A stretch of 62,805 bases of DNA from an uncultured bacterium (GCA_964526945.1 CAZGNA010000001.1:1-62805); one strand, 5' to 3'; positions 1-59,102 are shown, counted from the stretch's first letter. Numbers and translations: made by a program. The notes: generated by a model from the letters alone, not told the origin.

Positions 1-143
1 CTTTCGCGTCTGCCCCACAAGTGTCAACATCATTACGACTCAGTACACTCTAGAGATCGGGACTTTTGGCGCGCGGTTGGCGGTGTCCAGTGGCCGGGGG
101 TTGGCCAGGCTACCGACGAGCCGCAGGAGTGGGTACCGGAGGC

Positions 144-737: not shown

Positions 738-804
738 CGACTGCCCGGACCAGGATGGACCGTTACGGGCGTGCCAGCGGAATCGTGAGGAACGGAGCGA
801 ACGC

Positions 805-1395
805 ATGACCGATGAGGAGCAGCAGCGGCGCGGTGAGGAAGGACCCCGGGTGCGCGTGCGTCCGCGGCCGGGTCGGCGGGCGGAGCCGGTACGGGCTGTC
901 CTGGGCGAGGTGCGGACGCGCCTGCGGGACCTCGAGCGACGTTTTCTCGCGGTGCAGGCCGCTGCCGAGGCGCGCCCGCCAGCCGAAGTGCTGGGCGAAT
1001 ACCTGGTGCTGCTCCAGCAGGTGAAGGAGGTGGACCAACGGCTGGAGGGCGCCGCGGGCCGACGCGATCTGCAGTACGGAATGCACCTGCGGCTTCGTTA
1101 CCTGAACGACAACTGTCGATGGCTGAGCCGCCAGATCGCGGCGGAGGTGGTGTTGACCCTGCAGGTGCATCTCGAGCAACGGTTCAAGCGCGCGACCGAC
1201 CCGGATGCCTACCAGATGTTCCTGCGACTGGAGGAGCTGGCGGACACGGGGCGCGAGATCGAGCGGTTGTCGGACCGGGAGTTGATGGAGCGCCTGCGGG
1301 ATGGGACGCTGGTGCGCGATGTGCTGGAGGCGGTGCGTCTGGCGGACGTGGTGGCCTGGCCACTGCAGACGCCGCAGGCGCCGCAGACGTGGTGA
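805..1395 (+). CDS. hypothetical protein (charged, helical; no recognised domain)
   Basis: ORF 724..1395. ATG at 805 is preceded by GAGGAACGGAG. Its stop overlaps the GTG of the next gene (GTGA at 1392-1395). Confidence 0.5.
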   Translation: MTDEEQQRRGEEGPRVRVRPRPGRRAEPVRAVLGEVRTRLRDLERRFLAVQAAAEARPPAEVLGEYLVLLQQVKEVDQRLEGAAGRRDLQYGMHLRLRYLNDNCRWLSRQIAAEVVLTLQVHLEQRFKRATDPDAYQMFLRLEELADTGREIERLSDRELMERLRDGTLVRDVLEAVRLADVVAWPLQTPQAPQTW

Positions 1396-2678
1396 GCCAG
1401 TTTCCCGGCGAGGTGGACGAGGCAGCGACGGTGCCGACAGTTGCGGAGCGTCCGGATCTTCAGGTGCTCCCACCTGACGACGGGGCGACAGACGGACGCA
1501 CGCGCCTCACCGTGCTCCACGTGGTGGAGACACTGCGGACGGGAGGGACAGAACGGCAGCTCGTTGCCTTTCTGCAACGGTCGGACCGCCGACGGTTCCG
1601 ACATATCGTCTGCGTGCTTGCGGCCGGGGGACGGTTCGAGCACGAGCTGCAATGTCAGGGTGTTCCCGTATACCACCTGAACAGCCGGGGGCGGCTAAAC
1701 CCGGTGACGGGGGGGGTGCGCCTGCGACGGTTGGTGCGCGCCCTGCGCCCCGACGTGGTGCATGCGGCGTTGTTCTGGCCCGGTGTCCTGGCGAGGACCG
1801 TCGGACGCTGGAGCGGGGTTCCAGTGATCACGACCCTGGTCAACACAACGTACGAGCCCGAGTGGCGTCTTGACAATCCCCAGTTGACTCCGTGGAAGGT
1901 GTGGGCCGTGCGTATCGTCGATCGGGCCACGGCCCGATTGCATGGCACATGGTACGTGGCCATCACGGAGAGCGTGAAGATCTCAGCCGTGCGGCAGCTG
2001 CGAATCCCTCCTGAGCGCATCGAGGTCATTCCGCGAGGGCTGGTGCCTGAAAGCTATGCAGTGGAGGAGGACCCGGCGCGCATCCGGCGGGAGTTGGGCT
2101 GGGAGGACACGTATCCGCTGATCCTCAACGTCGGGCGGCTGGTGCCCCAAAAGGGCCAGCGGTACGCCGTTCGCGCCATGCCGGCTGTGGTTGCACGGTT
2201 TCCCAACGCCAGGCTGGTCATCGCGGGGGAAGGCCGGCTGCGGTCGATATTGGAGCGCGAGGTACGAGAGCTGGGCATGGACGCGCATGTCAGCCTGCTC
2301 GGGGAACGGACGGACGTGCGCAGATTGTTGCACGCAGCGGACCTCTTCGTCTTCCCGTCGCTGTTCGAAGGTTTTGGAAACGCGCTGCTGGAAGCTATGG
2401 CGGCCGGGCGACCGTGCGTCTGCAGCGACATTCCTCCCCTGCGTGAGGTGACCGACGGGGGACGTGTGGCAGTCTTGGTCGAACCACGATCGCCTGCCGG
2501 TCTGGCAGCAGCTCTGGTTCGTTTGGCGGCCGATACCACGACTGCCCGCGCGCTGGGGCACGAGGCGCAGGCATGGGTGCGCGAGCGCTACGACCTCCGC
2601 AGCGTCGTAGCGTCGCAGGAGGCGTTCTACGAGCGCGTGGTTCATGCGTCGGCCGTGCGCAAGGTGCAGGGGCCGTAG
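1392..2678 (+). CDS. glycosyltransferase family 4 (GT-B, RfaB-like)
   Basis: ORF 1119..2678. Homology starts at LTVLHVVETLRTGGTERQL, and a C-terminal EGFGNALLEAMAAGRPCV motif is present. The GTG at 1392 overlaps the upstream stop. The first ~90 codons of the ORF overlap the previous gene and look non-coding. Confidence 0.85.
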   Translation: MSQFPGEVDEAATVPTVAERPDLQVLPPDDGATDGRTRLTVLHVVETLRTGGTERQLVAFLQRSDRRRFRHIVCVLAAGGRFEHELQCQGVPVYHLNSRGRLNPVTGGVRLRRLVRALRPDVVHAALFWPGVLARTVGRWSGVPVITTLVNTTYEPEWRLDNPQLTPWKVWAVRIVDRATARLHGTWYVAITESVKISAVRQLRIPPERIEVIPRGLVPESYAVEEDPARIRRELGWEDTYPLILNVGRLVPQKGQRYAVRAMPAVVARFPNARLVIAGEGRLRSILEREVRELGMDAHVSLLGERTDVRRLLHAADLFVFPSLFEGFGNALLEAMAAGRPCVCSDIPPLREVTDGGRVAVLVEPRSPAGLAAALVRLAADTTTARALGHEAQAWVRERYDLRSVVASQEAFYERVVHASAVRKVQGP

Positions 2679-2780
2679 TCCCTCCCGAGTGGGCCGGGGT
2701 GGTCGGATCGGTGCAGTCGACTCAGCGCTCGTAGCCCCGTACGGCGGGAGGGGGCGCCCGACAAGGGGGTCAGTGGTCGG

Positions 2781-4256
2781 GTGTGCTCCACCGATCAAGG
2801 CGGCGACGGTGTTCTGGCTGTGGGTGACGTTCCGTACGGTGCGAGCGTGAACGCGAGAGACCGCGTGCTTCCACCTCGTGAGTCTGCGGCTTCGGTGGGG
2901 AGCTTCGTTGTCACGTTTCGCCGGCCAGGTGCCGTGCAGGACACGGTCCGGGCGCTCGAGAGGCAGACGTGGCCACCGAGCGAGATCGTGGTGCTCAACA
3001 ACGACGGAGCTCTGGCACTCGCTAGGCTCTTGGGGGAGCGGTTTCCGCGCGTTCGCGTTGAGAACCTTTCGGACAACCGCGGTTCCGCAGGAGGCTTCGC
3101 CCGTGCGTTGGAACTCGCGCGGGGCGCAGGGTTCACCTGGGCGTGGTTGCTCGACGACGATGCCACTCCCGCCCCCGATGCGCTCGAGCGCCTGTTGGCG
3201 GCGCACCGGACGTGGCCCACACGTGATGGAGGACCGGTCGGCATCCTCGCGCCCGTTCAGGTGTCTTCGCGACGGGTCTACGGGGTCGCGGCCTGGGAAG
3301 ACCGCATCGCGCCCTCTTCGATTCCGGGCGCGCAGGCCGATGGCCCCCCGTTCGAGGTCGACGTGACCTACTGGGCAGGCATGCTGGTTCACCGGTCGGT
3401 GGTGGAGACCGTGGGGCTGCCCAACAGCGCGTTCTTCCGCTGCTACGCCGACTACGAGTACTGTCTGCGTGCCCGGGCGGCCGGCTTTCGGATTCTGGCG
3501 GTGCCCGACAGCCGCATCTTCCACGAGCACAAGACCGTGACCGTGGTCCGATTTGGCCGCCCCAGCGTCCGCACGGTGCAGTCGCCCGAACGCACCTACT
3601 ACCACGCGCGGAACGCAGCGTACACCATGCGGTTCGTCCTTCGGAGCCGACGGGCCTTGGTCAATCACGTCGCACGCCAGCTGCGTCTTGCGCTTGGCGA
3701 TGTGCTCTACGAGGACCAGAAGGTGTGCCGGCTGCTGCTACGATTTCTCGGGCTCCTTGACGGGTGTCGTGGACGACTGGGGCGACGCGATCGGTTGGGC
3801 GGCGAATCTTGGAACGGGCAGACTGGTCACGCACTTCATGGCCATAAGCCACGCGGTGGCCGACGACGTCCGGCGTGTCTACCGCGTGCCGCCGCAGCGT
3901 GTCTCGGTCATTTATCGCGGCCTCGAGCCGTCGTGGTTGGTGCCCGAGTCTCCGGAGTGTGTAAGGGCGGTGCGCCGCGCCCTGGCTCCGCCGGACGCCT
4001 TCCCGATCTTGATTACGGTTGGCCGGCTGGTGGCACAGAAAGGGCAACAGTACGTGATCCAGGCCATGTGGGGTGTCCTGGCGCGTTTTCCGGGGGCGTA
4101 CTTGTGGCTGGTGGGAGATGGGCCACTTCGCGACACCTACCTGGCGCTCGCGGAAGGCGCCGGTGTCTCCGGCCGTATCAGCTTTCTTGGGACCCGCCGG
4201 GACGTGAAGCTCCTCTTGCACGCCGCCGACATCTTCGTCTTCCCGTCTGTCCATGA
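2781..4256 (+). CDS. glycosyltransferase family 2 (rhamnosyltransferase-like) with a non-native 3' extension
   Basis: GT2 motifs are present: SFVVTFRRPG..., NRGSAGGFARAL, WLLDDDATP. Recognisable GT2 sequence ends near LLRFLGLLDGCRGRLG (about 3790). The frame then stays open to 4256 only by running across a GT4 fragment encoded in another frame. Confidence 0.6.
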   Translation: MCSTDQGGDGVLAVGDVPYGASVNARDRVLPPRESAASVGSFVVTFRRPGAVQDTVRALERQTWPPSEIVVLNNDGALALARLLGERFPRVRVENLSDNRGSAGGFARALELARGAGFTWAWLLDDDATPAPDALERLLAAHRTWPTRDGGPVGILAPVQVSSRRVYGVAAWEDRIAPSSIPGAQADGPPFEVDVTYWAGMLVHRSVVETVGLPNSAFFRCYADYEYCLRARAAGFRILAVPDSRIFHEHKTVTVVRFGRPSVRTVQSPERTYYHARNAAYTMRFVLRSRRALVNHVARQLRLALGDVLYEDQKVCRLLLRFLGLLDGCRGRLGRRDRLGGESWNGQTGHALHGHKPRGGRRRPACLPRAAAACLGHLSRPRAVVVGARVSGVCKGGAPRPGSAGRLPDLDYGWPAGGTERATVRDPGHVGCPGAFSGGVLVAGGRWATSRHLPGARGRRRCLRPYQLSWDPPGREAPLARRRHLRLPVCP

Positions 4257-4560
4257 GGGGCTGGGGGTGGCCATGCTGGAGGCCATGGCCGTGGGGCGCC
4301 CGATCGTCGCTGCGAACATTCCCGCGCTGCGGGAAGTGACCGGGGGAGCAGCCGTGTTGGTGCCCCCGCGCCACGCAGATGCCCTTGGGGACGCCATCGT
4401 AGCGCTGGCAGAGCGGCCGGAGGAATGGGCAGTGATGGGTGCACACGGGCAGAAGACCGTGCGAACCCGGTTCGACATTGGCCGGAATGCTGACGCGTTT
4501 GCTGCACTGTGTATGAGGCTGACCACCGCAGCCAATAGACACGTCACCATTCCCGGATAG
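3769..4560 (+). pseudogene. glycosyltransferase family 4, C-terminal half only (N-terminal domain missing)
   Basis: Frame of ORF 3553..4560. It reads ISHAVADDVRRVYRVPPQRVSVIYRG..., ITVGRLVAQKGQ, HEGLGVAMLEAMAVGRPIVA. No GT4 N-terminal Rossmann half is present upstream in any frame. Confidence 0.6.
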
Positions 4561-4565
4561 CGTCG

Positions 4566-5921
4566 TTGGTCGTCCCGGCCTGGTTCGTGCGCCACGTGAC
4601 CTACCCGCTCTGGCAACAGCGGCGGGGTGGGGCTGTCCTGTCCGCCCTGGCGGAGTTGCAGAGGACACAATGGCTTTCGCCGGCGCAGCTGGAGTCGCTG
4701 CGGCTGGCGAGACTGCGCAGGGTGATCGACCACGCTGTGCGCTGCTCCTCGCTGTACAGGCAACGGTTTCTCGACGCGGGGGTGAGTGCAGACCGTGTAC
4801 AGTCCCTCGAGGATCTCGCACGGCTGCCGGTGCTGGAGAAGGCCGACTTACGGGACCGCGGATCTGAGGTGCGGACCGCCGCCACGACGGAGGGGCTGGT
4901 ACTGCGGCGTACGGGTGGTTCCACCGGCATCCCGCTTGCCCTGTGGGCGACTCCGGCCGCCCGCGACGCGTGGACTGCGGCCAGTTTGCGCTTCATGCAG
5001 TGGTGGGGGGTTGCCATTGGCGACCCGCGGCTGACGCTCATCAGCCGACGGACCCTCACGCGCGTGGGGTGGGTCAAGCAGTATCTCGGCGCCAACGTGC
5101 TTGAGCACTCCGCAAAGGACCTTTCGCCCCGAACGCTCGAGAAGATCTACCGTCGGCTCACAGCCGGCGGCATTGCCGCGTTGATGGGATACCCCTCCTC
5201 ACTCACCTATCTTGCCGACTACGTCCGCAGTCGAGGCGGATTGCGTCGGTCGTCGCTGCGGGCAGTGTTCACCACCGGCGAGGTTCTGCATGCGGATCAG
5301 CGGGCGCTGCTCGAGGAGGTCTTCACGTGTCCGGTGGCCGACGAATACGGTTCCTCCGAAACCGGCCACATCGCTGGCGAATGTCCCCGCGGGAGCCTCC
5401 ACATCGCCGCGGAGCAGCTGATCGTAGAGGTCGAGGGCAGCGGCGGGCGGGTTGGGGTGGAGGGGGAGCTGCTCGTGACCGATCTCCTGAACCTGGCGAC
5501 ACCTCTCATCCGCTACCGGATCGGCGACCGGGGCGCGCTGGGCAGCCCCTGCCCCTGTGGGCGGGGACTTCCCGTGCTCGCAATACGCGTGGCCCGCACG
5601 TCTGACCTGGTGGTGCTACCCGACGGGCGGCGGCTGGACTTCAGCGCCGTGGACGACGTGCTGGACGACCTGGTTCTCGCGGGCTTCCCTCTCCACCAGT
5701 ACCGGGTCGTGCAGCACGCCCTGGACGCTTTCGAGATCCTGCTGGCCACGCCGGCGCCACTCTCTCGCGATGTGGAGGACGACCTGCGACGGCGACTTCG
5801 CATGGCCCTCAACTATCCGGTTCATGTTGATGTCCGGCGCGTGGCCGAGATTCCTCCGGACGGAACCGGCAAACGGCGCCGCTTCGTCTCCAGGCTCCAC
5901 GAGCGGCACCGAACAGCCTGA
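4566..5921 (+). CDS. phenylacetate-CoA ligase family / CapK-like adenylate-forming enzyme
   Basis: TTG start ORF. Motifs RRTGGSTGIPL and DEYGSSETGHIA, a PCPCGRGLP element and a C-terminal GKRRRF are present. Confidence 0.8.
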   Translation: MVVPAWFVRHVTYPLWQQRRGGAVLSALAELQRTQWLSPAQLESLRLARLRRVIDHAVRCSSLYRQRFLDAGVSADRVQSLEDLARLPVLEKADLRDRGSEVRTAATTEGLVLRRTGGSTGIPLALWATPAARDAWTAASLRFMQWWGVAIGDPRLTLISRRTLTRVGWVKQYLGANVLEHSAKDLSPRTLEKIYRRLTAGGIAALMGYPSSLTYLADYVRSRGGLRRSSLRAVFTTGEVLHADQRALLEEVFTCPVADEYGSSETGHIAGECPRGSLHIAAEQLIVEVEGSGGRVGVEGELLVTDLLNLATPLIRYRIGDRGALGSPCPCGRGLPVLAIRVARTSDLVVLPDGRRLDFSAVDDVLDDLVLAGFPLHQYRVVQHALDAFEILLATPAPLSRDVEDDLRRRLRMALNYPVHVDVRRVAEIPPDGTGKRRRFVSRLHERHRTA

Positions 5922-6010
5922 TCGCTGCGGGACCGTAGCGCGCCCGCCAACGCTTCGGCTGCCATGAGTCGTCATAGCACGGCGATCGCACGCCTCGCCT
6001 GGTGGTGCAG

Positions 6011-7588
6011 ATGAAAGTCGCGAAGACGATACTGCGTAATCCCTGGCGCGTGTTCAACGTCTGGCGGCATGCATGGCGCGTGCTGGGGGAGCCGGTGACG
6101 CCCGCTGGGGCGCTGGACGCGGTGCGGCGGCGCATGGCCGAGCGGGAGGAGACGTTCCTCCGTACTGTGGAGCACACGGTGTTCGCCAATCCGGCCAGTC
6201 CGTACCGGGAGCTTCTGGCCGTGGCTGGCTACGACCTCCCGCGTGTGCGGGCTGTGGTGGCTGCGCGGGGTCTCGAGGGCGCGCTGGAGGAGTTGCGCGA
6301 CGCAGGCGTCTACGTGACGGTGCACGAGTTCAAGGGGTTCAGCGAGGCACGGCGCGGGGGGCGGAGCTTCCGCTGGCATCCGCGGCTGTTCGACAACCCG
6401 GCGGTGCGGTGGGGGTTGACTGCCACGTCGGGCGGGACACGCTCCTGGGGCGTGCCCTCAACCATCTCGGCCAGCAACCATCGTATGGGGGCAGAACACC
6501 TGGCCCTGGCGCTCTCAGCGTGTGGGCTGGATGACGCTCCTATGGCTGTCTGGATGTCCCATACGCAGGGTGCGAGCCTGTTCAATGTGTTGAGGCTGGC
6601 GGCGATGCGACGGCCACCCGCTGCTTGGTTTACGCAGTTCGCGAGCAACGGACGTTCCGGCCGTGCCCTCGACGTTCCACTGGTGGCCCTGGCGGCGCGT
6701 GCCCGCGGCGTGCGGTTGCCGCGTCCGACCCACGTCCCGATGGGAAGCGAAGAGCGCCTGCTGCGCTGGACTGAAGGGCACGTAGGACGCCATTGCGGGG
6801 TCTTCACCACGCCCAGTTTGGCCCTGCGGCTGGCGTTGGTTGCCGCACGGCGCGGGGTCAGCCTGCAGCATGTTACCTTCATTACGACTGCCGAGCCGCT
6901 CACGCCCGTGAAGTCGGCCGCTATTCACCGAGTGGGGGCGCGCGCATTTTCGTTACTGGGGTTCTCGGAGTTCGGTCCGGTGAGCTACGGGTGCGTGCAC
7001 GCAGTCGAGCCCGATGATGGGCACGTGTGCGAGGACGCCGTGGTGGTGATTCAACGGCGACGCGCCGTGGATGCGTTTGGCACGGAAGTGGATGCACTGC
7101 TCTTCACGTCGGTGCGTCCGGATGCGCGGAAGATTCTCCTGAACGTGGAGACGGGGGACTACGCGGCCGTGCTGCGGCGACCGTGCGGCTGTCCACTGGA
7201 GCGAGCAGGGTGGACGCAGCACCTGCTGACCATCCGCAGTTTCGAGAAGCTGAACGCGGAGGGGCGGCTGTTCTTTGGGGCGCAGCTCATCACGCTGCTT
7301 GAGGACATTCTGCCGCGGCAGTTTGGGGGTGATCCCACGGACTACCAGCTGGTCGAACAGGAGGACCAGGAGGGGTTCACCCGGCTGAGCCTTGTGGTCC
7401 ACCCGCGACTGGGGCCGCTTGACGAGAGCGCCCTCGTCGCGTGCGTGGAGACCACCCTCCGGGGCCTGCATGCGGAGAATGCGCGGGTGATGCAGCAGGC
7501 GGGGACGGTGCAGGTATGCCGGCGGCCTCCGTACGTGACGGGCGCGGGGAAGTTCATGCCGCTGCACCGCCTGCCGCCAGAGGGGTAG
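6011..7588 (+). CDS. divergent PaaK/GH3-like adenylate-forming family protein (tentative)
   Basis: ORF 6002..7588, ATG at 6011. It has a TATSGGTRSWG P-loop-like motif, RPCGCPLERAGW (compare PCPCGRGLP in its neighbours) and a C-terminal GAGKFMPLH. The assignment is by motif resemblance only. Confidence 0.55.
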   Translation: MKVAKTILRNPWRVFNVWRHAWRVLGEPVTPAGALDAVRRRMAEREETFLRTVEHTVFANPASPYRELLAVAGYDLPRVRAVVAARGLEGALEELRDAGVYVTVHEFKGFSEARRGGRSFRWHPRLFDNPAVRWGLTATSGGTRSWGVPSTISASNHRMGAEHLALALSACGLDDAPMAVWMSHTQGASLFNVLRLAAMRRPPAAWFTQFASNGRSGRALDVPLVALAARARGVRLPRPTHVPMGSEERLLRWTEGHVGRHCGVFTTPSLALRLALVAARRGVSLQHVTFITTAEPLTPVKSAAIHRVGARAFSLLGFSEFGPVSYGCVHAVEPDDGHVCEDAVVVIQRRRAVDAFGTEVDALLFTSVRPDARKILLNVETGDYAAVLRRPCGCPLERAGWTQHLLTIRSFEKLNAEGRLFFGAQLITLLEDILPRQFGGDPTDYQLVEQEDQEGFTRLSLVVHPRLGPLDESALVACVETTLRGLHAENARVMQQAGTVQVCRRPPYVTGAGKFMPLHRLPPEG

Positions 7589-7656
7589 GCTGCCTGGGCG
7601 CGCACGGAGGCAGGCAGTTGCGTCCCCTGGTGCGCGACAGAGGGCTGGATTGAAGC

Positions 7657-8955
7657 ATGAACTGGCGGTTTTTGGCGCAACGCCTGTGGCTCGAGCGAAC
7701 GCAGTGGTACAGCGCGGACCGTCTTCGCGCGTGGCAGGAGCGGCGGTGGCAGAAACTGCTGGTCCATGCCATGGCGCACTGTCGCTACTACCGGGAGGCA
7801 TTTGCAGAGTACCGCGACGGGGCGGCAGGGAACCTGGAGAGACTGCCTTTGCTTCCGGTGCTGACGCGCGCTGACGTGGCGCAGCAGCCGCTAGCCATTC
7901 TGGCCGACAATGCCTGGCGTTTTCGCCCGCACGTGGGCAGGACGGGCGGCACCAGCGGCAGGATGCTGGAGTTCGTGCGGGATCGGGCGACGGTCGACGT
8001 CGGCAACGCCGTGCGCGCGCGCTTTGCCGCCTGGCACGGGGTGCGGCGGGGACACCGGGTCGCAGAACTTCGGAACATGAGGACCTCCACGGGCACGCCG
8101 GACTTCCAGACGCTTGGGGCCTACTCGTCCAGCACGTCGACCCTGCGCCTGAACCTGCTGGTTCTCAGGGATCCCCGGCGATGGTCGGAGGTCGCTGCAG
8201 CGCTGGCAGAGTTCCGCCCCGACGTCGTGCGAGCAGGTTCGACGACGGCTTTGACCTACCTCAGTCTGTACCTGCTGAAACATCTCCAGTACGCTGTTCG
8301 GCCCTTCGTGGTGTTCGTAGGCGGCGAGCGGGTACTGCCGGATCAGCGGGCGACGATCGCCGAGGCGTTCAAAGCGCCGGTGGTCGAGCAGTACGGCAAC
8401 TGGGAGTACGTTGTCTTTGCCGGCGAGTGTCCACAGGGCAGACTCCATCTGGCCGCGGAGATGGGCATCGTGGAAATCCTCCGGGCTGGACGGCCGGCTG
8501 CGCCCGGTGAAGCTGGCAACGTAGTCGTGACGAACCTTTGGAACTTTGCCTTTCCCTTCATCCGCTACGCCATTGACGACGTCGCTTGGTTCGAGAGCGC
8601 CCCCTGTCCATGCGGGCGCGGCTTGCCCACCTGGCGGATCGTCGGTGGTCGCCAGAAAGATCTTCTGGCCACACCTGACGGATACGTGCACGTCCCCACC
8701 TCGCTCGTGGCGACACCACGCTGGCGGGGGAAGGTCGCGGGGATCCGGTTCTATCAGGAGACGCGGACTGCCGTCCTGGCGCAGGTGGTGAAGGGTCCCG
8801 ACTTCCGCCCGGAGGACACCGACGCCCTTCGCAACGAGATCCGGGAGTACCTGCTCGGTCGGCTGCGTGTGGACGTCGCGTTCGTCGATAGCCTCGAGCA
8901 GACCGCGGGTGGAAAGTTCCGGTCCGTGATCTCCACGGTGCCCGTCGAAGTGTGA
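7657..8955 (+). CDS. phenylacetate-CoA ligase family / CapK-like adenylate-forming enzyme
   Basis: ATG at 7657. Motifs GRTGGTSGRMLEF, EQYGNWEYVVFAGECPQGRLH, APCPCGRGLP and a C-terminal GGKFRSV are present. Confidence 0.8.
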   Translation: MNWRFLAQRLWLERTQWYSADRLRAWQERRWQKLLVHAMAHCRYYREAFAEYRDGAAGNLERLPLLPVLTRADVAQQPLAILADNAWRFRPHVGRTGGTSGRMLEFVRDRATVDVGNAVRARFAAWHGVRRGHRVAELRNMRTSTGTPDFQTLGAYSSSTSTLRLNLLVLRDPRRWSEVAAALAEFRPDVVRAGSTTALTYLSLYLLKHLQYAVRPFVVFVGGERVLPDQRATIAEAFKAPVVEQYGNWEYVVFAGECPQGRLHLAAEMGIVEILRAGRPAAPGEAGNVVVTNLWNFAFPFIRYAIDDVAWFESAPCPCGRGLPTWRIVGGRQKDLLATPDGYVHVPTSLVATPRWRGKVAGIRFYQETRTAVLAQVVKGPDFRPEDTDALRNEIREYLLGRLRVDVAFVDSLEQTAGGKFRSVISTVPVEV

Positions 8956-9051
8956 CCGATCGGCAGCGCCGCCGCCTTTGACGGTCTGGGGCGTTCCCGG
9001 GCGGGCACAGGCAGCGCGAGTTTGGGCAGTAGGGTCTAGCGTTCGTTTGTT

Positions 9052-9827
9052 ATGGCCGCCCCACGTCTTGTCGGCGTGATTCCTGCCGCCGGGCTCGGCC
9101 GCCGCCTGGGCCTGACGACGAGCAAGGAGATCCTGCCGATCGGTCAGCTGGATGCGACCGGCAGAGTACGGCTCCGGGCGGTTTGCGAGTCCCTGCTCGA
9201 GAGCATGGCGCAGGCGGGCGTGCAGCAGGTGTTCGTCGTGCTGCGAGCCGGGAAGTGGGACATCCCCGCCTTCCTGGCCGACGGCAGTCGCGTCGGCCTG
9301 CCGCTCGCCTACCTGGTCGTGCCCCCCACGCCAGGCGTCCCCCACACGGTGGCCGCCGCCCTCCCCTTCGTGCGTGGCGCGCTCGTGGCGTTTGGTTTCC
9401 CGGACATCCTGCTGCCGGCAGGATCGCTCTTTGCCCCACTGGTGGCCCGCGTGCGGGAGGCCGGGGCGGACGTCGCGTGCGGCCTGTTTCCGTTCTCTCG
9501 GCCGGGTGAGCAGGACGTGGTCGGCGTGGACATGCCGGGCGCGTTCTGGACCTGGTGGTCCGCGGGGCTGGCGCCCGGTCGTCGTACACCTGGGGCGTCG
9601 CCGTGTGGGGGCCTACGTTCAGCGAGTTCCTGGAGACGTACGTAGCCCGTCTGGCCGATCCTGCTGCGGGGGAGGTGGCGATGGGCGCGGCTTTTCGGGC
9701 TGCGCTGGAGGCGGGGCTGCGGGTGGAGGCACTCGTCGTGTCGGACGAGCCCTACATCGACGTTGGCACCCCCGCGGGGCTTGCTGCAGGCTGGCGCGGC
9801 GCGCTTACGGGGGTACCGCAAGCGTGA
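9052..9827 (+). pseudogene. sugar-phosphate nucleotidyltransferase (RmlA/GlmU N-terminal-like), frame-disrupted
   Basis: The N-terminus VIPAAGLGRRLG..SKEILPIG lies in the frame of ORF 9052..9645. The C-terminal part (RVLDLVV...YTWGVAVWGPTFSEF...YIDVGTPAGL) continues in the frame of ORF 9555..9827. The switch is at the G run 9537-9539. Confidence 0.75.
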
Positions 9828-9977
9828 GGCCGTCGGCGGAGGCCGCGCGGATGTTGCGGCGGCGAGACCCTACGGCGTGCGGTGGCCGGCCCGGCGTCTA
9901 GACCGTGCGCCGACCGGGCATACTCATTGGTGAATCCGGTACGAGATGAATCCGGTACACTTGGACACGGGAGCCTC

Positions 9978-10060
9978 CGACAACGGCAAACCCGGAGTGA
10001 TCCGGGGGCGCAAAGCTACGGGTCTCATGGGGGTGAACCCATGAGATGGCCGAGTTGCCG
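9978..10060 (+). promoter_or_regulatory. c-di-GMP-I (GEMM-I) riboswitch aptamer
   Basis: Conserved cores GGCAAACC and GGCGCAAAGCU are present. P2 is CCCGGA-GUGA-UCCGGG with a GNRA loop. The P3 hairpin is GGUCUCAUGGG/CCCAUGAGA(U)GGCC. P1 is CGACAAC (9978-9984) paired with GUUGCCG (10054-10060). It lies about 60 nt upstream of the start codon at 10121. Confidence 0.8.
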
Positions 10061-10120
10061 AAGAGGGCTTCGCGCGCGGGACATGCGCGCCGGATGGCTC
10101 CGGAGATGGAGGCGGATCCG

Positions 10121-12355
10121 ATGCGCGTCCGCGCGGGTGTCGCGCTTGTCTGCACTGCTGCACTTCTCGCTGTCGTTGCGCCGGTAGGCTTCGGTTCTGG
10201 CGGCGTTGGGTCTGCACACCGCGGACACCAACGGAACGATCACTTCGTACACTACCGGAACGATCGGGCGCACGAGGCGAGTTTTCGTGGGTTCGGGGAT
10301 CTCCAGGCCGCGCTGGTAGAACCGGCAAACCGCCCGCGGCTCCCCAGCAGGCGTCCTTCCCCCTCCCCCAGTCCCACCCCTGGGCCATCGCCCACACCCA
10401 CGCCGGCACCGACGCCCGTCCCCTCACCGACCCCAACGCCCAGCCCTGGGCCATCGCCCACACCCACACCGACACCGACGCCCGTCCCTTCACCGGTTCC
10501 GACACCCAGTCCGTCCCCGGGCATCACGGGCGCCCGCTGGAGCGATCCGCGCACGTGGCCCGGGGGGCAAGTGCCCTCACGCACGACCGACGTGCTGATT
10601 CCAGTTGGCAAGGCCGTCGAGGTCGACACGGAGCAGGCGGAGGCACGTGTGCTGATCGTCGAAGGGACCCTGGTATTCAGCCGCACCCGCGCTGCGCGGC
10701 TCGCGCTGTACGGCAACCTCATCGTCCGCCAGAGCGGACGGCTCGAGATGCGCCCCGGTGCGCCGGAGATCGTGCACACGATTCAGTTTCTGGGGATCGA
10801 CGAACGCCGGTTCGTGGGCGGCCACACGATGGAGCCGTTGCCGTCCGATGTGGGCCTGTGGGTGCAGGATGGAGCCCTGCTGGACGTGCAGGGCAGCCCC
10901 AAGCTGGCGTGGGGGCGGTTGGCGGGAAGTGCCGCCGCGGGCGACAGTCGGCTCGTGCTGGCGCAGGACCCCGTGGGCTGGCGGGTGGGTGACGAGCTCG
11001 CCATCACGCCGACGCTTCCGCCAACCGTGTGGGGGCACTACGACGCCTACGACTATGCCACTGTCACGCGCATCGTGGGGCGCGAGGTCACCATCGACAG
11101 GCCCCTGCGCTTCGCCCACCCGGCCGTCGAAGTGCGGCCGGGCGTGACCATGACCGCCGAGGTGCTGAACCTGACGCGCAACGTGCGCATCGAGGGTACA
11201 CCCCAGGGGCGTGCGCACGTGATCTTCAACATGGCTCTCCGGCCGCAGGCGCTGCGCTATGCCGCGCTGCGGTACATGGGGCCCCAGCGGCCGCCCGATG
11301 CCGATGGCAACGTCGTCGGCGTGCTTGGACGCTACGGGGTGCATTTCCACCGAATGGGTGACGCAGCGCGGGGGAGCATGGTCGAGGGGGTCGTGGTCCG
11401 GGATGTCGGGCACATCGGCGTCAACGCCCACGGAAGTCACGGTGTGGTGGTCCGCAGGACCATCGTGCACAATGGCTATGCGCCAACGGCCTTCGGCTGG
11501 GACCCCATTGCGGTCGATACGCGCACCAAGAACTTTGCCAACGGGAGTCACGACGTGCTCTACGAGGAGTGCGTGGCATCCCGCATCACCGTAATCCCGG
11601 CATTCAGGGGATACAGGCTCTCGGGGTTCAGCCTGGTCGGGGGGAAGCGCAACCGGTTGATCAACAGCGTCGCCGTTGGCGTCCAGGGGAACAAGGACGC
11701 CAGCGGGGCTGGCTGGGGCGAAGGAGAGTCGGTGGAAGCCACCAAGACGCCAGACGGTGAGCCGTGGGGCGTCTGGGACGTCCAGGGCTTTGTCGGGCAC
11801 AACAACAGACGCCATGGGTGGTTCGTGTGGCAGAATACCGACAACCCGCATGTTGTCGGCGACGGCTCGGTCTTGTACCACAACGGCGGATTGGGGATCA
11901 ACCACGGGGCGTACCTGAACGTCTACCGGTACCGCAACATGACGTTGTTCGGGAACGGTGAAGGAGGGATCGCACTCCGGGCGCGGGGCGCCATCGTCTT
12001 CGAGAACCTGCACATCGACCAGGGCGGGATGACGGACTACGCGGTGCACACCGCCGAGCACGCACTGTCATCGGAGGGGCGCACGCTCTTCCTCGGCGGC
12101 GTGATGCGCGGGTACCGGAAGGCCGGTGTGGCCTTGTTGTGGCCGGGCAGCAGCGGGGTCGCCGACAAGCTCGACGTGGTCGATGTGCAGTTCGGCGGCA
12201 ACGAGTTCTGGGTGAGCGATAGCACCGCGGCGACGTCCAGTGTGCGATGGCAGCGCGGCGGCGACGCGCTGCTGTTGCAGCGACGCGACCAGCCCGGCGA
12301 ATACGTGGAGTCGCGATGGAACGCGAGCGTCACGCGGATCCCGGTGTTCCGGTAG
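10121..12355 (+). CDS. secreted G8-domain / right-handed beta-helix protein with Pro-Thr-Ser linker
   Basis: ORF 10046..12355. ATG at 10121 has GGAGG 8 nt upstream and a signal-peptide-like [28 protein letters not shown]-rich linker follows. The G8-like segment is [30 protein letters not shown]...EGTLVF, followed by GRYGVHFH and beta-helix repeats. Confidence 0.8.
10379..10510 (+). repeat. two tandem copies of a 66-bp (22-codon) unit inside the PT-linker coding region
   Basis: cctgggccatcgcccacacccac... occurs at 10379 and again at 10445. There are 3 substitutions in the first 51 nt. Confidence 0.8.
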
Positions 12356-12530
12356 CGACGGACTGCGCCAGCGGTGCGAGGGCGCGGAGGCGCGGACGTC
12401 GGTTGCCATGGAGGTGACGAGACGCGCCAGCAGCGTGGCGTGTGGTGTGTGCGGGTACGCGGTGTGCGGGTACTGCGGTAGGCGGCCCCCGTCCGGCTCG
12501 GAGCGCCTGCTGGCGCTGGCGCCGTGGTGG

Positions 12531-13412
12531 CTATAGCTCGTCGCGTAACCGTAAGAGCACTCCGCGACACAAGTTGGTAAGGTTACGCCACGCCCGACGT
12601 CGCCGAGAGCGGCGGGCGACCGCCGCACGGGCATGGCGGCGCAGCTCCGCTGCCAGCATCGTGCCCGCCCAACGGTCGCCGCGGAGCAGGAACTTGCAGT
12701 AGAAGGCACCGCGCCCCCGGGCGGAGGCGTCGAGGACGCGGTCAAGATCTTCGGGCGTGCGCCGACTCAGGTCATGCCACACGAGGGGGGCGGGCGTGTA
12801 GAGAATCTGGTACCCCCGACGCAATACCCGAAAGGCATACTCGGTGTCGCTGGCCGCGCCCACGGGCGTGCCCGCCCCCATCCGCTCGTCGAACTCGCCC
12901 ACCTGTTCGACCAGCGTCCGTCGAAACGCCATGTTGTTTCCGTGTCCAATGGCCCAGGGCGGTGTGGGATACGCATACAGGCGGCGTGCCGGGTCGTCTT
13001 TGACGGACAGAGCGACAGCCGAGCCAGCGGCCAGGCGGGTTCGGCCAAAGACCATCGGAACGTCGGGGTGAGCGTCGAACTCTGCCGCCAGGTGGGCGAG
13101 CCAGTAGCGGTCGACCACGCAGTCGTCGTCGGTGAAGGCGAGAATGGTACCGCGGCTGGCGCGGAGCCCACGGTTTCGCGCTCGGGCCAGGCCGGGGTGG
13201 CGGTCATAGAGGTAGTACGTCGGCAGACGTGGTTCGCGCATGAACCGGTCGACCACACGGCTGGTCTCGCCGGCGGTTCCGTTGTGGACGATGATCAGCT
13301 CCGCCCGCAGTCCCTGGGGCAGCACGAGGTTTGCGAGGCTGGTCAACGTGTCGACCAGGCTGGCAGGGCGATCGCGCGTGCAGACAATGACGGATACATC
13401 TGCCGAGTGCAT
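12531..13412 (-). CDS. glycosyltransferase family 2
   Basis: ORF 12531..13613. Motifs VSVIVCTRDRP, LARARNRGL and LAFTDDDCVV are present. ATG at 13412 (MHSADVSVIV) is preferred; 13454 is an alternative. Confidence 0.8.
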   Translation of the reverse strand: MHSADVSVIVCTRDRPASLVDTLTSLANLVLPQGLRAELIIVHNGTAGETSRVVDRFMREPRLPTYYLYDRHPGLARARNRGLRASRGTILAFTDDDCVVDRYWLAHLAAEFDAHPDVPMVFGRTRLAAGSAVALSVKDDPARRLYAYPTPPWAIGHGNNMAFRRTLVEQVGEFDERMGAGTPVGAASDTEYAFRVLRRGYQILYTPAPLVWHDLSRRTPEDLDRVLDASARGRGAFYCKFLLRGDRWAGTMLAAELRRHARAAVARRSRRRRAWRNLTNLCRGVLLRLRDEL

Positions 13413-13613
13413 GCTCGACGTCTCTACAGCGGGTGAAGACTTGGGGCCGTGCATCGTTGAGGCGCTGCCGTGATGGCGTGCCTCGCCCTTCGGATACTTG
13501 CCTCGGCCCGTGGTCCGGCCGGTCCCGTGGCGCCGTGAGCGTTCACGGCGTTTCCCGGCGCGCCCCCTGGTGCGACCCGCGGTGGCAGCTACTCTTGGGG
13601 AGCACGCGGGCAC

Positions 13614-14951
13614 TCATCGCCGCATGGCAGGTACAGGGTAGCTGACCGCCAGGCCCCGCGCCGGCACCGGTCGTCCGCCCTCGGACCGTGACTGCAACCC
13701 GAGCACGCTGATGCCTGTGGAGAGCAGCGTGCGCTCCACGGGTACCGGCGGCCGACCCGTGACGAAGAACTCGACGAGCGCGTGCACCAGGTACCCGAAG
13801 TGCTCGTAGGGCGCGCCCTCGAGCACCAGCCCTCCCACGTAGTCCTCGCCGCTGTCGTAGCGGACCCCCAGGCGAAATTCGGCGTCGTCGAACTGGCCCG
13901 GCAGCAGGGCCAGGACGCCACGCGCTCCGTCGAGGTATTCCACCAGGACGACGAAGTCCCGGTCGCTGAGCCCCCCCGGCACCCGCGGAGCCCGGGGCGA
14001 CCGGGTACGGGCGCCTGTCAGCAGCACCTCCAACAGGTCGACTCCCCACCGCTCGCGGTCGGGCAGCGTCCACAGGTCGCGCCCGACCTCACGCACCCAG
14101 GCCACGCCTACTTCCCGCGGGCTGCGCGACTCCATCACAGCCTGCAGCAGTTCCGCGGCGTGAATGGCGTACAGGCGGTACGGAGCGGCCGCCGCTGCGA
14201 TCACCAGCTGTGGCCGCCGTCCCAGGGGGAGCGGCGGCACGAGGGGCACCCAGGGGACTACCGAGCCGCCCATGAGCGGAACCCGCCGCCGGCCGCCCTC
14301 GGCGACGACTGCCAGGCTCTCGTCGAGCGTCGCTGCCAGGTTCTTGTCGACGAACACCGGTGCACCCCGGCCGGCGCGATCGAAGGCCGCCATGGTGGCG
14401 CGAAACAGACGGAACTGCGGCGAGCCTTCCGGTGGTGCCTGGAGGTCTGGCAGGGTGCGGGCGGCGATCACCACGCCGTCGACGGTCAGCTGCGGCCGCG
14501 CCGCTGCGGGCGCATCGAGCAGGGCCTCGGCGGGCGACGACACCGGCCGCACGCCGAACCGGGCCGCGAGCTGCGCGCCAAGGTGGTCGGGACGGGGTGC
14601 CGCCTGGTACATGGTGGCGATCGTGACCGGCGAGCTGTACTGCACGTCGCCCCGCCGGTAGCCGGTCAGGAGGCGCGTGCCGATGACGTCGGCGTGGGAG
14701 ACCGGGTGCCAGCTGTCGACGAGGAACGCCACCGCACGCCGGGCGGGCTGGGCTGTGAGCGCCCCCTGGGCGGCGACGACCGCGTGCAGCAGTATCACGG
14801 CCAGCGTCACCGCCGCGCCTGGCCGTCGCCGGTGAGTGCCGACCGCTGTCCGTAACACGCGTCCCGCGAGGCTCACGCGCCAGCGCCATGTCGGCGCGGG
14901 GTCAGGGCGCGGCGGGCCGGGCGATCCCGTGGGCCAGTGGAGGCGACGCAC
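13614..14951 (-). CDS. hypothetical exported protein (weak Gfo/Idh/MocA-like resemblance)
   Basis: GTG at 14951 has GGAG 7 nt upstream. There is an N-terminal hydrophobic segment, AVTLAVILLHAVVAAQG. The segment APVFVDKNLAATLDESLAVV resembles the oxidoreductase family only loosely. Confidence 0.5.
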   Translation of the reverse strand: MRRLHWPTGSPGPPRPDPAPTWRWRVSLAGRVLRTAVGTHRRRPGAAVTLAVILLHAVVAAQGALTAQPARRAVAFLVDSWHPVSHADVIGTRLLTGYRRGDVQYSSPVTIATMYQAAPRPDHLGAQLAARFGVRPVSSPAEALLDAPAAARPQLTVDGVVIAARTLPDLQAPPEGSPQFRLFRATMAAFDRAGRGAPVFVDKNLAATLDESLAVVAEGGRRRVPLMGGSVVPWVPLVPPLPLGRRPQLVIAAAAAPYRLYAIHAAELLQAVMESRSPREVGVAWVREVGRDLWTLPDRERWGVDLLEVLLTGARTRSPRAPRVPGGLSDRDFVVLVEYLDGARGVLALLPGQFDDAEFRLGVRYDSGEDYVGGLVLEGAPYEHFGYLVHALVEFFVTGRPPVPVERTLLSTGISVLGLQSRSEGGRPVPARGLAVSYPVPAMRR

Positions 14952-14970
14952 GGAGGCGCTCCGGCTCGGG

Positions 14971-16155
14971 TTACGGCGCTGCCAGCCGGGGGAACAGCAG
15001 CAGCCGCAACGGGTAGGCGGTCATGATCACCAGGGTGCCGTCGCGCGTCGCCGTCGATCCCTGGATGATGAGGTTGCGGGCCACGGTGCGGGTATAGCCC
15101 GGCGGTGGGGGGCCCAGCGGTGCGACCCGTCCGACCACACGGGGGACGCCGTCGTCGGGGTGCACGCGGAGGAGGTACAGGTCGTTGCCGTAGGTGGCGG
15201 TGTAGTACAGCGCTCCGTCGGGTGCAGCCGTGATGGTGTAGTGGACCCCGGGCGGCGTGTACCCCGGAGGGATCGCGGCGCCGAGCACGCGGACGAGCAC
15301 CTCACGCTCGCGCGGCTGATAGAGGTAGACCTGGCCGGATCCTTTGCCTACACCAACGAAAGACCGCCCCTGGGGTGTCGCAGCCAGCGCATACGGCGCC
15401 TCGTAGGTGCCGGCGCCCGTCAGGACCAGCGGCAGGCGTTCGACGACGCCCCGGGCGGCACTGTACCGTGCGATGGTGGCCTCGGGCCAGGGGTGGAAGG
15501 CATCGCCGTTGGCGAGTACGACCAGGTAGCGGGTCGGGTCCTGTCCGGGCGGCCCGAACTGTCCCCGGTCGGTGAACGCGCGCGTGCGCAGGTCGTAGGT
15601 GACCAGGTGGCTGTCCGGGTCGGTCAGCACATAGACAAGATGCCGCTCGGCATCGAGACCGACGGCGATGATGCTGACTCTGGGCTTGACGATACCGAGG
15701 TCGGTCGTGGTGCCCGTCTTGGGGTCGAACACCAGCAGATGTCCGCCTGGATAGTGCGCCTGGGCGGCGGCATCCCGCGCGGGGCGGCCCGACTTCGTCC
15801 CGAAGTACACCCGCCCGTCCGGCGCGATGACCGGTTTCGTGTGGATCTTCGCCTGGGCATAGGGTCCCGGCATGCGCTCACCGGTCACCGCGGACATCTC
15901 GGCAAGGCTTTCGAACCGCCCGGTGCTTCCTGTGAAGGCCAACAGGTGCGCGTAGCCATTGTAGACCGTCGTCCCGAGGTAGATCCGGCCGTCCTCGGCG
16001 GCCTGGACGGCGGTGTAGGCGCCGCCGGTGTGATACTCCTCGGGTACGTAGACGACGGTAGGGGTCAATACGGGAAGCGGGGCCGCTCCCGCAGCGGTGC
16101 CCGTGAGCCCGAGGGTGATCGCGGCCAGTACGAGATGTCGTCGAAGCATACCCAT
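14971..16155 (-). CDS. secreted hypothetical protein, beta-propeller-like repeats
   Basis: ORF 14971..16239. An internal start gives the signal peptide MGMLRRHLVLAAITLGLTGTAAGAAP. Motifs of the form DGRIYLGT / DGRVYFGT / DGALYYT recur. Confidence 0.6.
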   Translation of the reverse strand: MGMLRRHLVLAAITLGLTGTAAGAAPLPVLTPTVVYVPEEYHTGGAYTAVQAAEDGRIYLGTTVYNGYAHLLAFTGSTGRFESLAEMSAVTGERMPGPYAQAKIHTKPVIAPDGRVYFGTKSGRPARDAAAQAHYPGGHLLVFDPKTGTTTDLGIVKPRVSIIAVGLDAERHLVYVLTDPDSHLVTYDLRTRAFTDRGQFGPPGQDPTRYLVVLANGDAFHPWPEATIARYSAARGVVERLPLVLTGAGTYEAPYALAATPQGRSFVGVGKGSGQVYLYQPREREVLVRVLGAAIPPGYTPPGVHYTITAAPDGALYYTATYGNDLYLLRVHPDDGVPRVVGRVAPLGPPPPGYTRTVARNLIIQGSTATRDGTLVIMTAYPLRLLLFPRLAAP

Positions 16156-16460
16156 AGGTCGAGGCCCGACCGGCATGTGTCGTTCCCAGTATACCCCAGA
16201 CGCCCTGGCCCCGGGCGTTCCGGGCTGGTGGTCGGCCATCGTCGGTGGGCGCGCGGTGCGCGGCCCGGGGGGCGCTGCGTGGCACCGGATCTCCGGGAGC
16301 AGCCGGGTGGCGACGGTCTAAAAGGTCGAGGACTTGGCCATTAGTACTGTGTGGGAGCACCACCTGGGTCTGGACGTCAAAGTGAGCGGCATACGTGCCG
16401 CCATGTCGTGGTAGAACCTGCCGCGACCGGCGGGTATCGTATGTCTGGCAGGACGGGGCA

Positions 16461-17585
16461 ATGGTGGCTGATGACCTGCTGGCGGCGATGGAGCGCATTG
16501 CGCGCGCTCCGGGTCGCAGCGGGGGGCGTGCGCCGCTGGCCGCCGCGGTGCGTGAAATCGCCAGTCGGGTCGGTGACGGTATGGTCGCGCTCCAGGTGCC
16601 CGGGGCACCCGCTGTCTGGTATCCACGCCAGGCAGCCGGGTCCCTGGCAAGGGCGCTGCAGCCGTGGCATGCCCGGGTGGTCCAGCGCGGGCGTGCGCTG
16701 CCGGTCAACCTCCCGGCCGGTCCGCGGCGACCGTCTTTGCGACAGGGGGTCGTCTTCCCCGTGCTTCTCCCGACGGGAGACGTGGGTGTCCTGGCGGTGT
16801 GGCATGGTGCCACGCGCCCACCCCTGTCGGAGGAGCGCATGGCCGAGTGCATGCTCCTGGCGGGGTGGGCGGCCGCCCTGGTGGCGTGTACGCGCGCAGG
16901 TCAGCGTGCAGAGCTCGCCGCGGCGACAGCCGTGCGCGAGCGCATCGCACGCGATCTGCACGACGGGCCGTTGCAGCTGCTCTCGGCGGCCCTCCTGCGC
17001 CTGCGGGCGCCCGTGCAGGCCGGGACGACGTCGAGCGGCGCGCTGCGGGCAGCCGAGCGCGACCTGGCCAGGGCCGTGCGGCAGCTGCGTGCGCTGGTTG
17101 GCCGTGTGCGAGCGCCCCGATCCCGGCGGCCGCTGTCCGCGCGTATTCGGGACGCCCTGGCCCGCCTGGGGGAAGCCGGGCAGTTCGTCTGGACGCTGCG
17201 CTGGCAGAAGGCGGCCGGGGCGTTGCGCGACGAGGTGGCCGACGAGGTATTCGCCGTGGTCCAGGAAGCCCTGGTCAACGCGTCGCGGCACGCGAGGGCG
17301 ACCCGCGTGGAGGTGCGCGGTCGACGGCGCGGGGACGTGCTCGAAGTCGTCGTGCGCGACGACGGCGTGGGGTTCGATCCTGCGGCACGGCGCGGGCGGC
17401 GGGCAGCGCTGGCGTTCGGGCTGCGCGGGATGCGCGAACGGGTGCGGGACCTGGGGGGGACCCTGGCGATCCGGTCACGGCCGGATCGAGGGACCCGGGT
17501 GGTGCTCAGGGTCCCGGTGGCACCTGCCCGGCACAGGGCGAACGGGACCCGAGAGGGAGGAGTCGAGCGCCGCGGTGGGGAATAG
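16461..17585 (+). CDS. sensor histidine kinase, HisKA_3/HATPase_c (NarL-partner type), GAF-like N-terminus, no TM segment
   Basis: H-box RIARDLHDGPLQLL, N-box EALVNASRHA, and DDGVGF...GLRGMRERVRDLGGTL are present. ATG at 16461. Confidence 0.85.
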   Translation: MVADDLLAAMERIARAPGRSGGRAPLAAAVREIASRVGDGMVALQVPGAPAVWYPRQAAGSLARALQPWHARVVQRGRALPVNLPAGPRRPSLRQGVVFPVLLPTGDVGVLAVWHGATRPPLSEERMAECMLLAGWAAALVACTRAGQRAELAAATAVRERIARDLHDGPLQLLSAALLRLRAPVQAGTTSSGALRAAERDLARAVRQLRALVGRVRAPRSRRPLSARIRDALARLGEAGQFVWTLRWQKAAGALRDEVADEVFAVVQEALVNASRHARATRVEVRGRRRGDVLEVVVRDDGVGFDPAARRGRRAALAFGLRGMRERVRDLGGTLAIRSRPDRGTRVVLRVPVAPARHRANGTREGGVERRGGE

Positions 17586-27882: not shown

Positions 27883-28011
27883 GTCCTCCCTCGACGGGCG
27901 TTGGATGCCCCGGGGGAACGTGGTAGTCCGGGGGGACTCGCTGCACGGCCGGGTGGGCAGAATATCTCTGCGCGGACGGTGTCGCCCCGTCGGAGGGGAG
28001 GTCGCGGCACC

Positions 28012-43306: not shown

Positions 43307-43384
43307 GCCCCCATCGTCTAGGCAGGCCCAGGACACCGGTCTTTCAAGCCGGTAACGCGGGTTCGAATCCCGCTGGGGGCACCA
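43307..43384 (+). tRNA. tRNA-Glu (anticodon UUC)
   Basis: Manual cloverleaf: acceptor GCCCCCA/TGGGGGC, anticodon arm CCGGT-CTTTCAA-GCCGG, T arm GCGGG-TTCGAAT-CCCGC, encoded CCA. It resembles E. coli tRNA-Glu. Confidence 0.95.

Positions 43385-59027: not shown

Positions 59028-59102
<75 letters not shown>

Follow-up and report, generated by a model that had tools for sequence, protein, structure and literature searches.

In the 62,805-nucleotide stretch of uncultured bacterial DNA analyzed here (GCA_964526945.1, CAZGNA010000001.1:1-62805; hereafter the window, 71% G+C), the gene for a predicted secreted G8/beta-helix protein is preceded by a 5' or intercistronic RNA leader whose positions 9976-10063 almost certainly form a genuine aptamer of the c-di-GMP-I (GEMM-I) class and very probably bind cyclic di-GMP (c-di-GMP). 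We file this full-length element as an ordinary, canonical c-di-GMP-I member, because the G/A/C triad of ligand contacts is canonical and the G47 that defines a known variant is absent. Taken as a whole, a canonical c-di-GMP-I aptamer exerting translational OFF control over a secreted depolymerase-like G8/beta-helix protein is the reading we find rather likely.

An Rfam cmscan search of both strands of the window returned a sole riboswitch match, at 9976-10063 (+), with 68.8 bits (gathering score 59; E = 3.6e-14); the match, in which every helix is formed, runs from position 1 to 80 of the 80-position model, and restricting the search to 9900-10140 reproduces the score. The family scoring highest, RF03167 (c-di-GMP-I-GGC), belongs to clan CL00126 (GEMM-I), of which one further family, presumably RF01051 (gathering score 35), also reaches its own gathering score at the same aptamer. 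An earlier note on this DNA had proposed a c-di-GMP-I aptamer here, to be checked with the RF01051 covariance model: the search bears out the proposal, albeit with the sister model RF03167 scoring best and the second clan family also above threshold. The conserved cores that the note had placed at 9985-10027 are indeed there (GGCAAACCCGGAGTGATCCGGGGGCGCAAAGCTACGGGTC at 9985-10024), as are its GNRA-capped P2 and its long P3 hairpin, the latter as an exact 9-nt inverted repeat (10023-10031 / 10038-10046). The helix CGACAAC/GUUGCCG that it took for P1 is not the family’s P1: the model alignment assigns those strands to J1/2, P3 and the junction, and we dropped the helix for the family model’s assignment, while a helix resembling it, CGGCAA/UUGCCG, does occur, as a non-native alternative, among the ligand-free folds that ViennaRNA predicts. 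The Shine-Dalgarno (SD) sequence GGAGG at 10108-10112 and the ATG at 10121 stand as first read, with the aptamer ending 45 nt, and not 60 nt, before the SD; the distance from the aptamer’s end to the ATG is 58 nt, and gene and aptamer share one strand. The parts of the aptamer are, by position:

9976-10063 (+): the entire c-di-GMP-I (GEMM-I) aptamer, matched by Rfam cmscan over the full model length
C9978-G9979 / C10059-G10060 (+): the P1 core of 2 bp, from the model alignment
9970-9976 / 10065-10071 (+): the outer P1 extension, from single-sequence and alignment folds
9980-9985 (+): J1/2, the unpaired ACAACG ending in the G20 equivalent, from the model alignment
9986-9987/10010-10011 plus 9991-9996/10001-10006 (+): P2, with its GUGA cap at 9997-10000, from the model alignment
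10014-10056 (+): P3, with the distal hairpin at 10022-10047 and closed by GUU at 10054-10056, from the model alignment
10057-10058 (+): the GC junction bearing the C92 equivalent, from the model alignment

Orthologous leaders provide the framework in which these parts can be judged. A protein search with the product of the downstream gene found two close relatives (68% identity) and then hundreds of homologs at 46% identity or less, mostly actinobacterial. One relative comes from the metagenome-assembled genome ‘Candidatus Fervidifonticultor quintus’ (loci L001/L004) and the other from a JGI hot-spring-type metagenome contig (L003), to whose leader that of L207, the cluster mate of protein P0003, is identical. 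Fervidifonticultor belongs to Candidatus Sysuimicrobiota, formerly CSP1-3 (PMC11604079). Genes shared with the window encode products that are 61-81% identical in tblastx comparisons, and the order of riboswitch, G8 gene and convergent family 2 glycosyltransferase gene is kept in L001, L003 and L207; the window therefore probably derives from the same Sysuimicrobiota lineage. The aptamers that precede the 68%-identical gene in L004 and L003 score 69.1 and 65.3 bits in Rfam, respectively, and both feature an A at position 47.

In Vc2, the type example from Vibrio cholerae, c-di-GMP is contacted by G20, A47 and C92, and the interhelical pair C44-G83 is universally conserved (PMC4744006, PMC5888326). 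By model alignment, the equivalents of the three contacts are G9985, A10012 and C10058, the same in L004 and L003; those of C44-G83, located at sequence level, are C10009, in the GGC ahead of the pairs closing P2, and G10049, within the bulge of P3, and occur in 3/3 sequences. These assignments bear directly on the possibility that the element belongs to the variant class c-di-GMP-I-GGC, with an altered pocket and possibly another ligand, as could be read from RF03167 being the family on which the window and both orthologs score best in Rfam. We take the ‘GGC’ of that name to denote positions 20/47/92. The RF03167 consensus, however, reads ACGC-G-AAgCc where the window reads GCGC-A-AAGCU, and the differing position is the first unpaired nucleotide after P2 in the model’s structure line, i.e., A47 of Vc2; it is an A in the window and in both orthologs. 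As a control, metagenome contigs were scanned for the A47-type core GGCAAAC-N12-18-GGCGCAAAGCNACGG, yielding 120 loci, 20 of which were run through Rfam: most of these A47-type aptamers, too, score best on RF03167 (up to 80 bits) and the remainder on RF01051 (gathering score 35). Since A47-type aptamers mostly top-score on that family, the RF03167 label reflects model competition on compact, G+C-rich aptamers and not a variant pocket, and we consider membership of the variant class very improbable. It follows that a top RF03167 match does not equate to a variant pocket, and that automated annotation mislabels canonical aptamers in G+C-rich genomes unless position 47 is inspected.

An A at position 20 reportedly marks yet another variant, the cyclic AMP-GMP or cGAMP type (c-AMP-GMP, GEMM-Ib), in work of 2015 ascribed to Kellenberger and to Nelson; position 20 in the window is G9985, which argues against this candidate. 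The c-AMP-GMP riboswitch class itself has been described (PMC7266159). The control contigs also yielded observations of their own: several of the A47-type metagenome aptamers reach 70-80 bits on RF03167, and six contigs (L166, L089, L090, L101, L104 and L128) carry two to four GEMM-I aptamers each, some of them in tandem, with those of L166 at 373-460, 487-561, 1184-1258 and 2256-2330.

Conservation across the three leaders (window, L004 and L003) follows the RNA. Identity to the window is 79-83% over the 5' flank and aptamer and 73-80% over the aptamer-to-ATG linker, against about 50% in the 100 nt upstream and about 71% in the mature coding region. Within the helices, one P2 pair stays paired while varying (C-G / U-A / U-G), one pair at the base of P3 changes from C-G to U-A, and 4/9 pairs of distal P3 change yet stay paired, and the P2 tetraloop, which in the class at large docks into a receptor in P3, remains of the GNRA type, as GUGA in the window and GCGA in the orthologs. 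Beyond these relatives, the pairing of riboswitch and G8 gene fades quickly: among 80 G8 genome loci (Rfam on 20, a regular-expression search on the loci fetched), the aptamer core was found only in L004; the next-closest homologs, P0004, P0005 and P0006, are without an aptamer; and 0/120 of the metagenome A47-type aptamers precede a G8 homolog or share the window’s linker. With the core thus confined to orthologous loci, the pairing appears to be a narrow, lineage-specific acquisition. One could take this restricted association, together with the finding that intact key residues do not guarantee strong binding in Vc1 (PMC4744006), as signs of a decayed aptamer relic or a chance resemblance devoid of any regulatory role. 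Such a reading is nonetheless hard to credit, as a highly significant match spans the entire model, each key nucleotide tested is intact, sequence conservation is higher in the aptamer and 57-nt linker than in the flanking DNA or the coding sequence, and the helices show compensatory changes.

Cyclic-dinucleotide riboswitches adjoin this gene family in another phylum as well. In two Kitasatospora loci, a cyclic di-AMP (c-di-AMP; ydaO, RF00379) riboswitch lies directly upstream of a G8 homolog on the opposite strand (L012, 1735-1896 (-), 64.8 bits; L015, 1699-1871 (-), 52.2 bits), where it presumably controls the divergent gene.

How the window’s aptamer would act on the gene is to be sought in the linker and in the strand immediately 5' of the aptamer. 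The elements of interest are:

9970-9979 (+): alpha, the 5' flank plus the P1 5' strand, GGAGCCUCCG, with GGAGCC invariant in the three leaders
10065-10071 (+): beta, GGGCUUC, which pairs with 9970-9976 as the 3' strand of the outer P1 extension
10072-10090 (+): H1, a G+C-rich hairpin (GCGCGCG / UGCGCGC) separating the aptamer from gamma, of 7 bp in the three leaders, with a 5-nt loop and no U tract; not a terminator
10090-10103 (+): gamma, the 14-nt anti-SD strand CCGGAUGGCUCCGG, complementary to three partners
10108-10112 (+): the SD sequence GGAGG, followed by a spacer, GGAUCCG (10114-10120), that can join the gamma hairpin
10121-12355 (+): the G8/beta-helix gene, 744 aa, starting with ATG, supported by translation, Pfam and an AlphaFold2 model

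No terminator-like site or sigma-70 promoter was found in 9500-10400, and the lack of a terminator-like site makes translational control the default expectation; we hold it probable that the leader acts on translation of the G8 gene rather than on transcription termination. The string from the SD to the start, (A/G)GGAGG...(A/G)UCCGAUGCG, is conserved in all three leaders, and H1 keeps its 7 bp with two pairs varying but staying paired (C-G to U-A; G-U to G-C) and its loop free to vary. A CCUCC tract at 9974-9978, put forward earlier as a possible anti-SD, reads CCGCC in both orthologs, which keep the SD, and is thus not a conserved anti-SD. Among all helices of at least 5 bp that the three leaders can form, it is instead gamma that stands out, with its three partners. 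It can pair through 10091-10101 with alpha (9970-9979; 10-11 bp with one bulge, -19.4 to -19.9 kcal/mol, -19.9 in the window), which can otherwise pair with the P1 3' strand plus beta (10059-10071); with the strands of P2 (9991-10006; -22.3 to -26.8 kcal/mol, -26.8 in the window, with CGGA/UCCG as the common stem); or with the SD and spacer up to the AUG (10108-10120; -13.9 to -14.9 kcal/mol, -14.9 in the window). The pairing of alpha with the P1 3' strand plus beta amounts to only -11.4 to -12.8 kcal/mol. When the linker was dinucleotide-shuffled 1000 times, the SD match by itself was reached in 543 cases, the alpha and SD matches together in 12 and all three in one.

From these pairings we tentatively propose a three-partner translational OFF switch, in which gamma is exchanged between the P1 5' and P2 decoys and the SD, as a possible brake on a TMEM2/CEMIP-like depolymerase. 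Without c-di-GMP, the aptamer would be unlocked and gamma captured by aptamer strands in the stronger duplexes, leaving SD and AUG accessible; binding of c-di-GMP would fix P2 as well as P1 and its outer extension (9970-9976/10065-10071), and the freed gamma would close over the SD and turn translation OFF. High c-di-GMP would thereby restrain a secreted glycan-cleaving enzyme encoded in an exopolysaccharide-type locus, and repression of a matrix-cleaving enzyme under such conditions may, speculatively, make biological sense. The OFF logic follows from the ligand fixing exactly those strands that otherwise hold gamma, and for the direction of the switch we lean slightly toward OFF at high c-di-GMP.

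Folding calculations, in which minimum free energy (MFE) structures were used only as energy bookkeeping for the named states, accommodate parts of this scheme. In constrained folds of transcripts that stop at AUG+6, the MFE structure is the alpha:gamma state in L004 and a P2:gamma state in L003, and in the window alpha:gamma lies 1.1 kcal/mol above the MFE. The same folds put the combination of native aptamer and SD hairpin 6-12 kcal/mol higher, with ligand and tertiary energies left uncounted, a gap that c-di-GMP binding could plausibly cover; with the aptamer imposed as a constraint, L004 and L003 are predicted to form the hairpin that sequesters the SD. It is important to note that several points weigh against the proposal. 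The gamma:SD match alone is not significant, as 54% of the shuffled linkers reach it; when 33 nt of coding sequence are included, the window’s SD is predicted to be open in both states; and in this 71% G+C sequence MFE folds are unstable and flank-dependent, the three orthologs giving different ligand-free folds. The three leaders are, moreover, closely related, so that the alpha:gamma and gamma:SD pairings are near invariant with almost no covariation, and the outer P1 extension, whose AGCC/GGCU core pairs do not vary, likewise shows none. Alpha and beta pair before gamma has been transcribed, and such a kinetic trap could make the switch insensitive. Finally, the enzymatic activity of the G8 protein is deduced from fold similarity at 12-14% identity.

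Part of this uncertainty feeds a different view of the output, in which the same aptamer turns expression ON upon ligand binding, or acts via Rho-dependent termination or mRNA decay instead of SD occlusion. The class includes ON as well as OFF members: Vc1 has been reported as an activator (PMC4744006) and Bc1 exerts dual regulation (PMC11218506). Within the window’s leader, further conserved complementarities connect aptamer and start region: the P3 5' strand (10019-10025) matches the spacer GGAUCCG (10114-10120) and GCGCA (10008-10012) matches UGCGC (10122-10126), so that the free RNA could hide the start, and the MFE predictions differ between orthologs. An exopolysaccharide locus, furthermore, often needs its own glycanase for polymer production (e.g., BcsZ, PslG or AlgL), a need that co-induction by c-di-GMP would fit. 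P3 is, however, a long and stable local helix, unlikely to open for a 7-bp long-range pairing; the ligand-locked aptamer holds nothing that could open the local gamma:SD hairpin; and the strongest conserved alternative pairings of gamma use strands that the ligand fixes, the P1 5' strand and P2. We consequently regard an ON or otherwise different output as unlikely, if with some claim to attention, and retain translational OFF control through gamma as our working model.

Upstream of the aptamer, an exact 12-nt direct repeat, TGAATCCGGTAC, occurs at 9931-9942 and 9947-9958 with a period of 16. On its 5' side lies a motif, GGGCATACT (9917-9925), that the orthologs share; the 32 nt of the repeat are missing from both of their leaders. 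Each copy holds AUCCGG, a hexamer also found in the P2 3' strand and in the SD-AUG spacer, and could therefore pair with the anti-SD CCGGAU as well; the repeat may bind a protein, have arisen by duplication or serve as an additional decoy.

The product of the regulated gene agrees with what had been claimed for it, namely a signal-peptide-bearing G8/beta-helix protein: it yields a G8 domain match (PF10162, E = 1.1e-8, above the Pfam cut-off) and a confidently modeled right-handed beta-helix. The N-terminus consists of MRVR and a hydrophobic stretch, read from the sequence as a Sec-type signal peptide, followed by a Pro/Thr/Ser-rich linker of ~60 residues. The CEMIP beta-helix family PF24606 matches weakly (23.8 bits, below the cut-off of 27.3) and a search of NCBIfam gave no match for the protein. 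AlphaFold2 models residues 140-744 with a pLDDT of 90.3 and a pTM of 0.92, and the best Foldseek match of this model in the PDB is the ectodomain of the TMEM2 hyaluronidase (8c6i, E = 2.6e-15, TMq 0.64), followed by Klebsiella capsule lyases and phage capsule depolymerases; a direct PDB sequence search returns only a marginal TMEM2 match (E = 0.0037). On the strength of the modeled fold, the protein can reasonably be viewed as a predicted secreted polysaccharide depolymerase.

The gene start is corrected as well, from a database product of 594 aa to one of 744 aa with a signal peptide. The public annotation (P0001) begins at ~10571 and thus omits both the signal peptide and the Pro/Thr linker, and the starts called in L001 and L003 are likewise too short; conservation of the SD-ATG context and the signal peptide in both orthologs identifies ATG 10121 as the true start. 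An in-frame ATG at 10046 was rejected, as it lies inside P3 and is missing from the orthologs. The next gene being on the opposite strand, the G8 gene is monocistronic.

Compared with characterized c-di-GMP-I riboswitches (RF01051; Vc2, and Vc1 upstream of gbpA), the window’s element has in common the architecture of P1, GNRA-capped P2 and P3, the cores GGCAAAC and CGCAAAGC, and the equivalents of G20/A47/C92 and C44/G83. Vc1 controls the secreted chitin-binding adhesin GbpA (PMC4744006), and the window’s aptamer, too, occupies the leader of a gene whose secreted product is surface- or matrix-related. It differs in scoring higher on the sister model RF03167, in having a G and not an A before C44 (GGGGCGC vs. 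GGGACGC), and in a core P1 of 2 bp that continues into a 7-bp outer helix; its expression platform is lineage-specific, its target a G8/CEMIP-type beta-helix protein, and its host, as judged from nearest relatives, apparently a member of the uncultivated phylum Sysuimicrobiota (CSP1-3). With c-di-GMP-I-GGC (RF03167) it shares the compact, G+C-rich scaffold and short P3 loop region, but not the variant-defining G47. The proposed expression platform resembles translational OFF riboswitches with anti-SD/anti-anti-SD exchange, as in many S-adenosylmethionine (SAM), thiamine pyrophosphate (TPP) and prequeuosine (preQ1) riboswitches of high-G+C bacteria: it likewise has no terminator, and its P1 5' strand can likewise pair with the anti-SD strand, which the ligand would free to cover the SD. 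It departs from these systems in that the anti-SD strand also matches both P2 strands as a putative second decoy; the aptamer would thus offer two decoys, given that P2 and the anti-SD hairpin share the CGGA/UCCG stem.

A further c-di-GMP-I riboswitch changes no concept, the class being numerous and well understood, and the new points are accordingly modest: the target gene family, the host lineage, the model of the expression platform and the caution about the Rfam sub-family label. A c-di-GMP input is nonetheless assigned to a bacterial G8/CEMIP-like beta-helix family without studied function, in a phylum known only from metagenomes and in the setting of matrix-polysaccharide biology, and for an organism with 71% G+C there is now a concrete, mutable model of how an expression platform could control translation. 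If the three-partner OFF switch is true, it would mean that in Sysuimicrobiota an enzyme of matrix degradation or dispersal is braked at the RNA level, and would provide the first link between c-di-GMP signaling and G8-type glycanases; a full-text search of the literature turned up no publication in which G8 domains and c-di-GMP riboswitches are connected.

The wider genomic context is that of a glycan locus, as the earlier note had stated, with glycosyltransferase genes on both sides of the G8 gene. The surrounding genes encode a DUF218 protein, two family 4 (GT4) and two family 2 (GT2) glycosyltransferases, a nucleotidyltransferase (NTP transferase) and AMP-ligase-like proteins, with weak NCBIfam matches of the AMP-ligase type at 6002-7588 and 7657-8955. 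Two further genes frame the subject:

12531-13613 (-): a family 2 glycosyltransferase gene, convergent with the G8 gene (Pfam Glycos_transf_2, 4.2e-20)
27927-30500 (+): a GAF-GAF-GAF-GGDEF diguanylate cyclase gene with an RxxD I-site (Pfam GGDEF 6e-46, GAF 6e-41)

The GAF-GGDEF cyclase, also flagged earlier, is real and lies 18 kb from the aptamer with an intact active site and I-site (RPSD-x5-GGDEF); its presence indicates that the organism is able to make c-di-GMP, although nothing ties this particular cyclase to the riboswitch. Across the whole window, Rfam additionally finds three tRNA genes on the plus strand (43307-43381, 57078-57150 and 59028-59099; 61-74 bits).

Several minor features of the locus were noted in passing. 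The NTP-transferase gene upstream of the riboswitch seems to be split over two frames, 9052-9645 and 9555-9827 (+), with the N-terminal NTP_transf_3 match in one and a C-terminal piece ending ...EPYIDVGTPAGL... in the other, which points either to a pseudogene with a frameshift or to an error of assembly. Similarly, a GT2-like open reading frame (ORF; 2781-4256) and an ORF for a GT4 C-terminus (3553-4560, +) overlap by ~700 nt in different frames, an arrangement that could reflect a second frameshift or, the DNA being G+C-rich, wrongly called ORFs. When compared with the Fervidifonticultor locus, the window carries ~7.3 kb of additional genes (2781-9900; GT2, GT4, three AMP-ligase-like ORFs and the NTP transferase), which lie between the GT4 gene and the riboswitch. 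Third-position G+C of the ORFs is 0.80-0.86 in the first 17 kb vs. mostly 0.87-0.97 in the rest of the window, which suggests a variable or horizontally exchanged glycan locus (1-17500).

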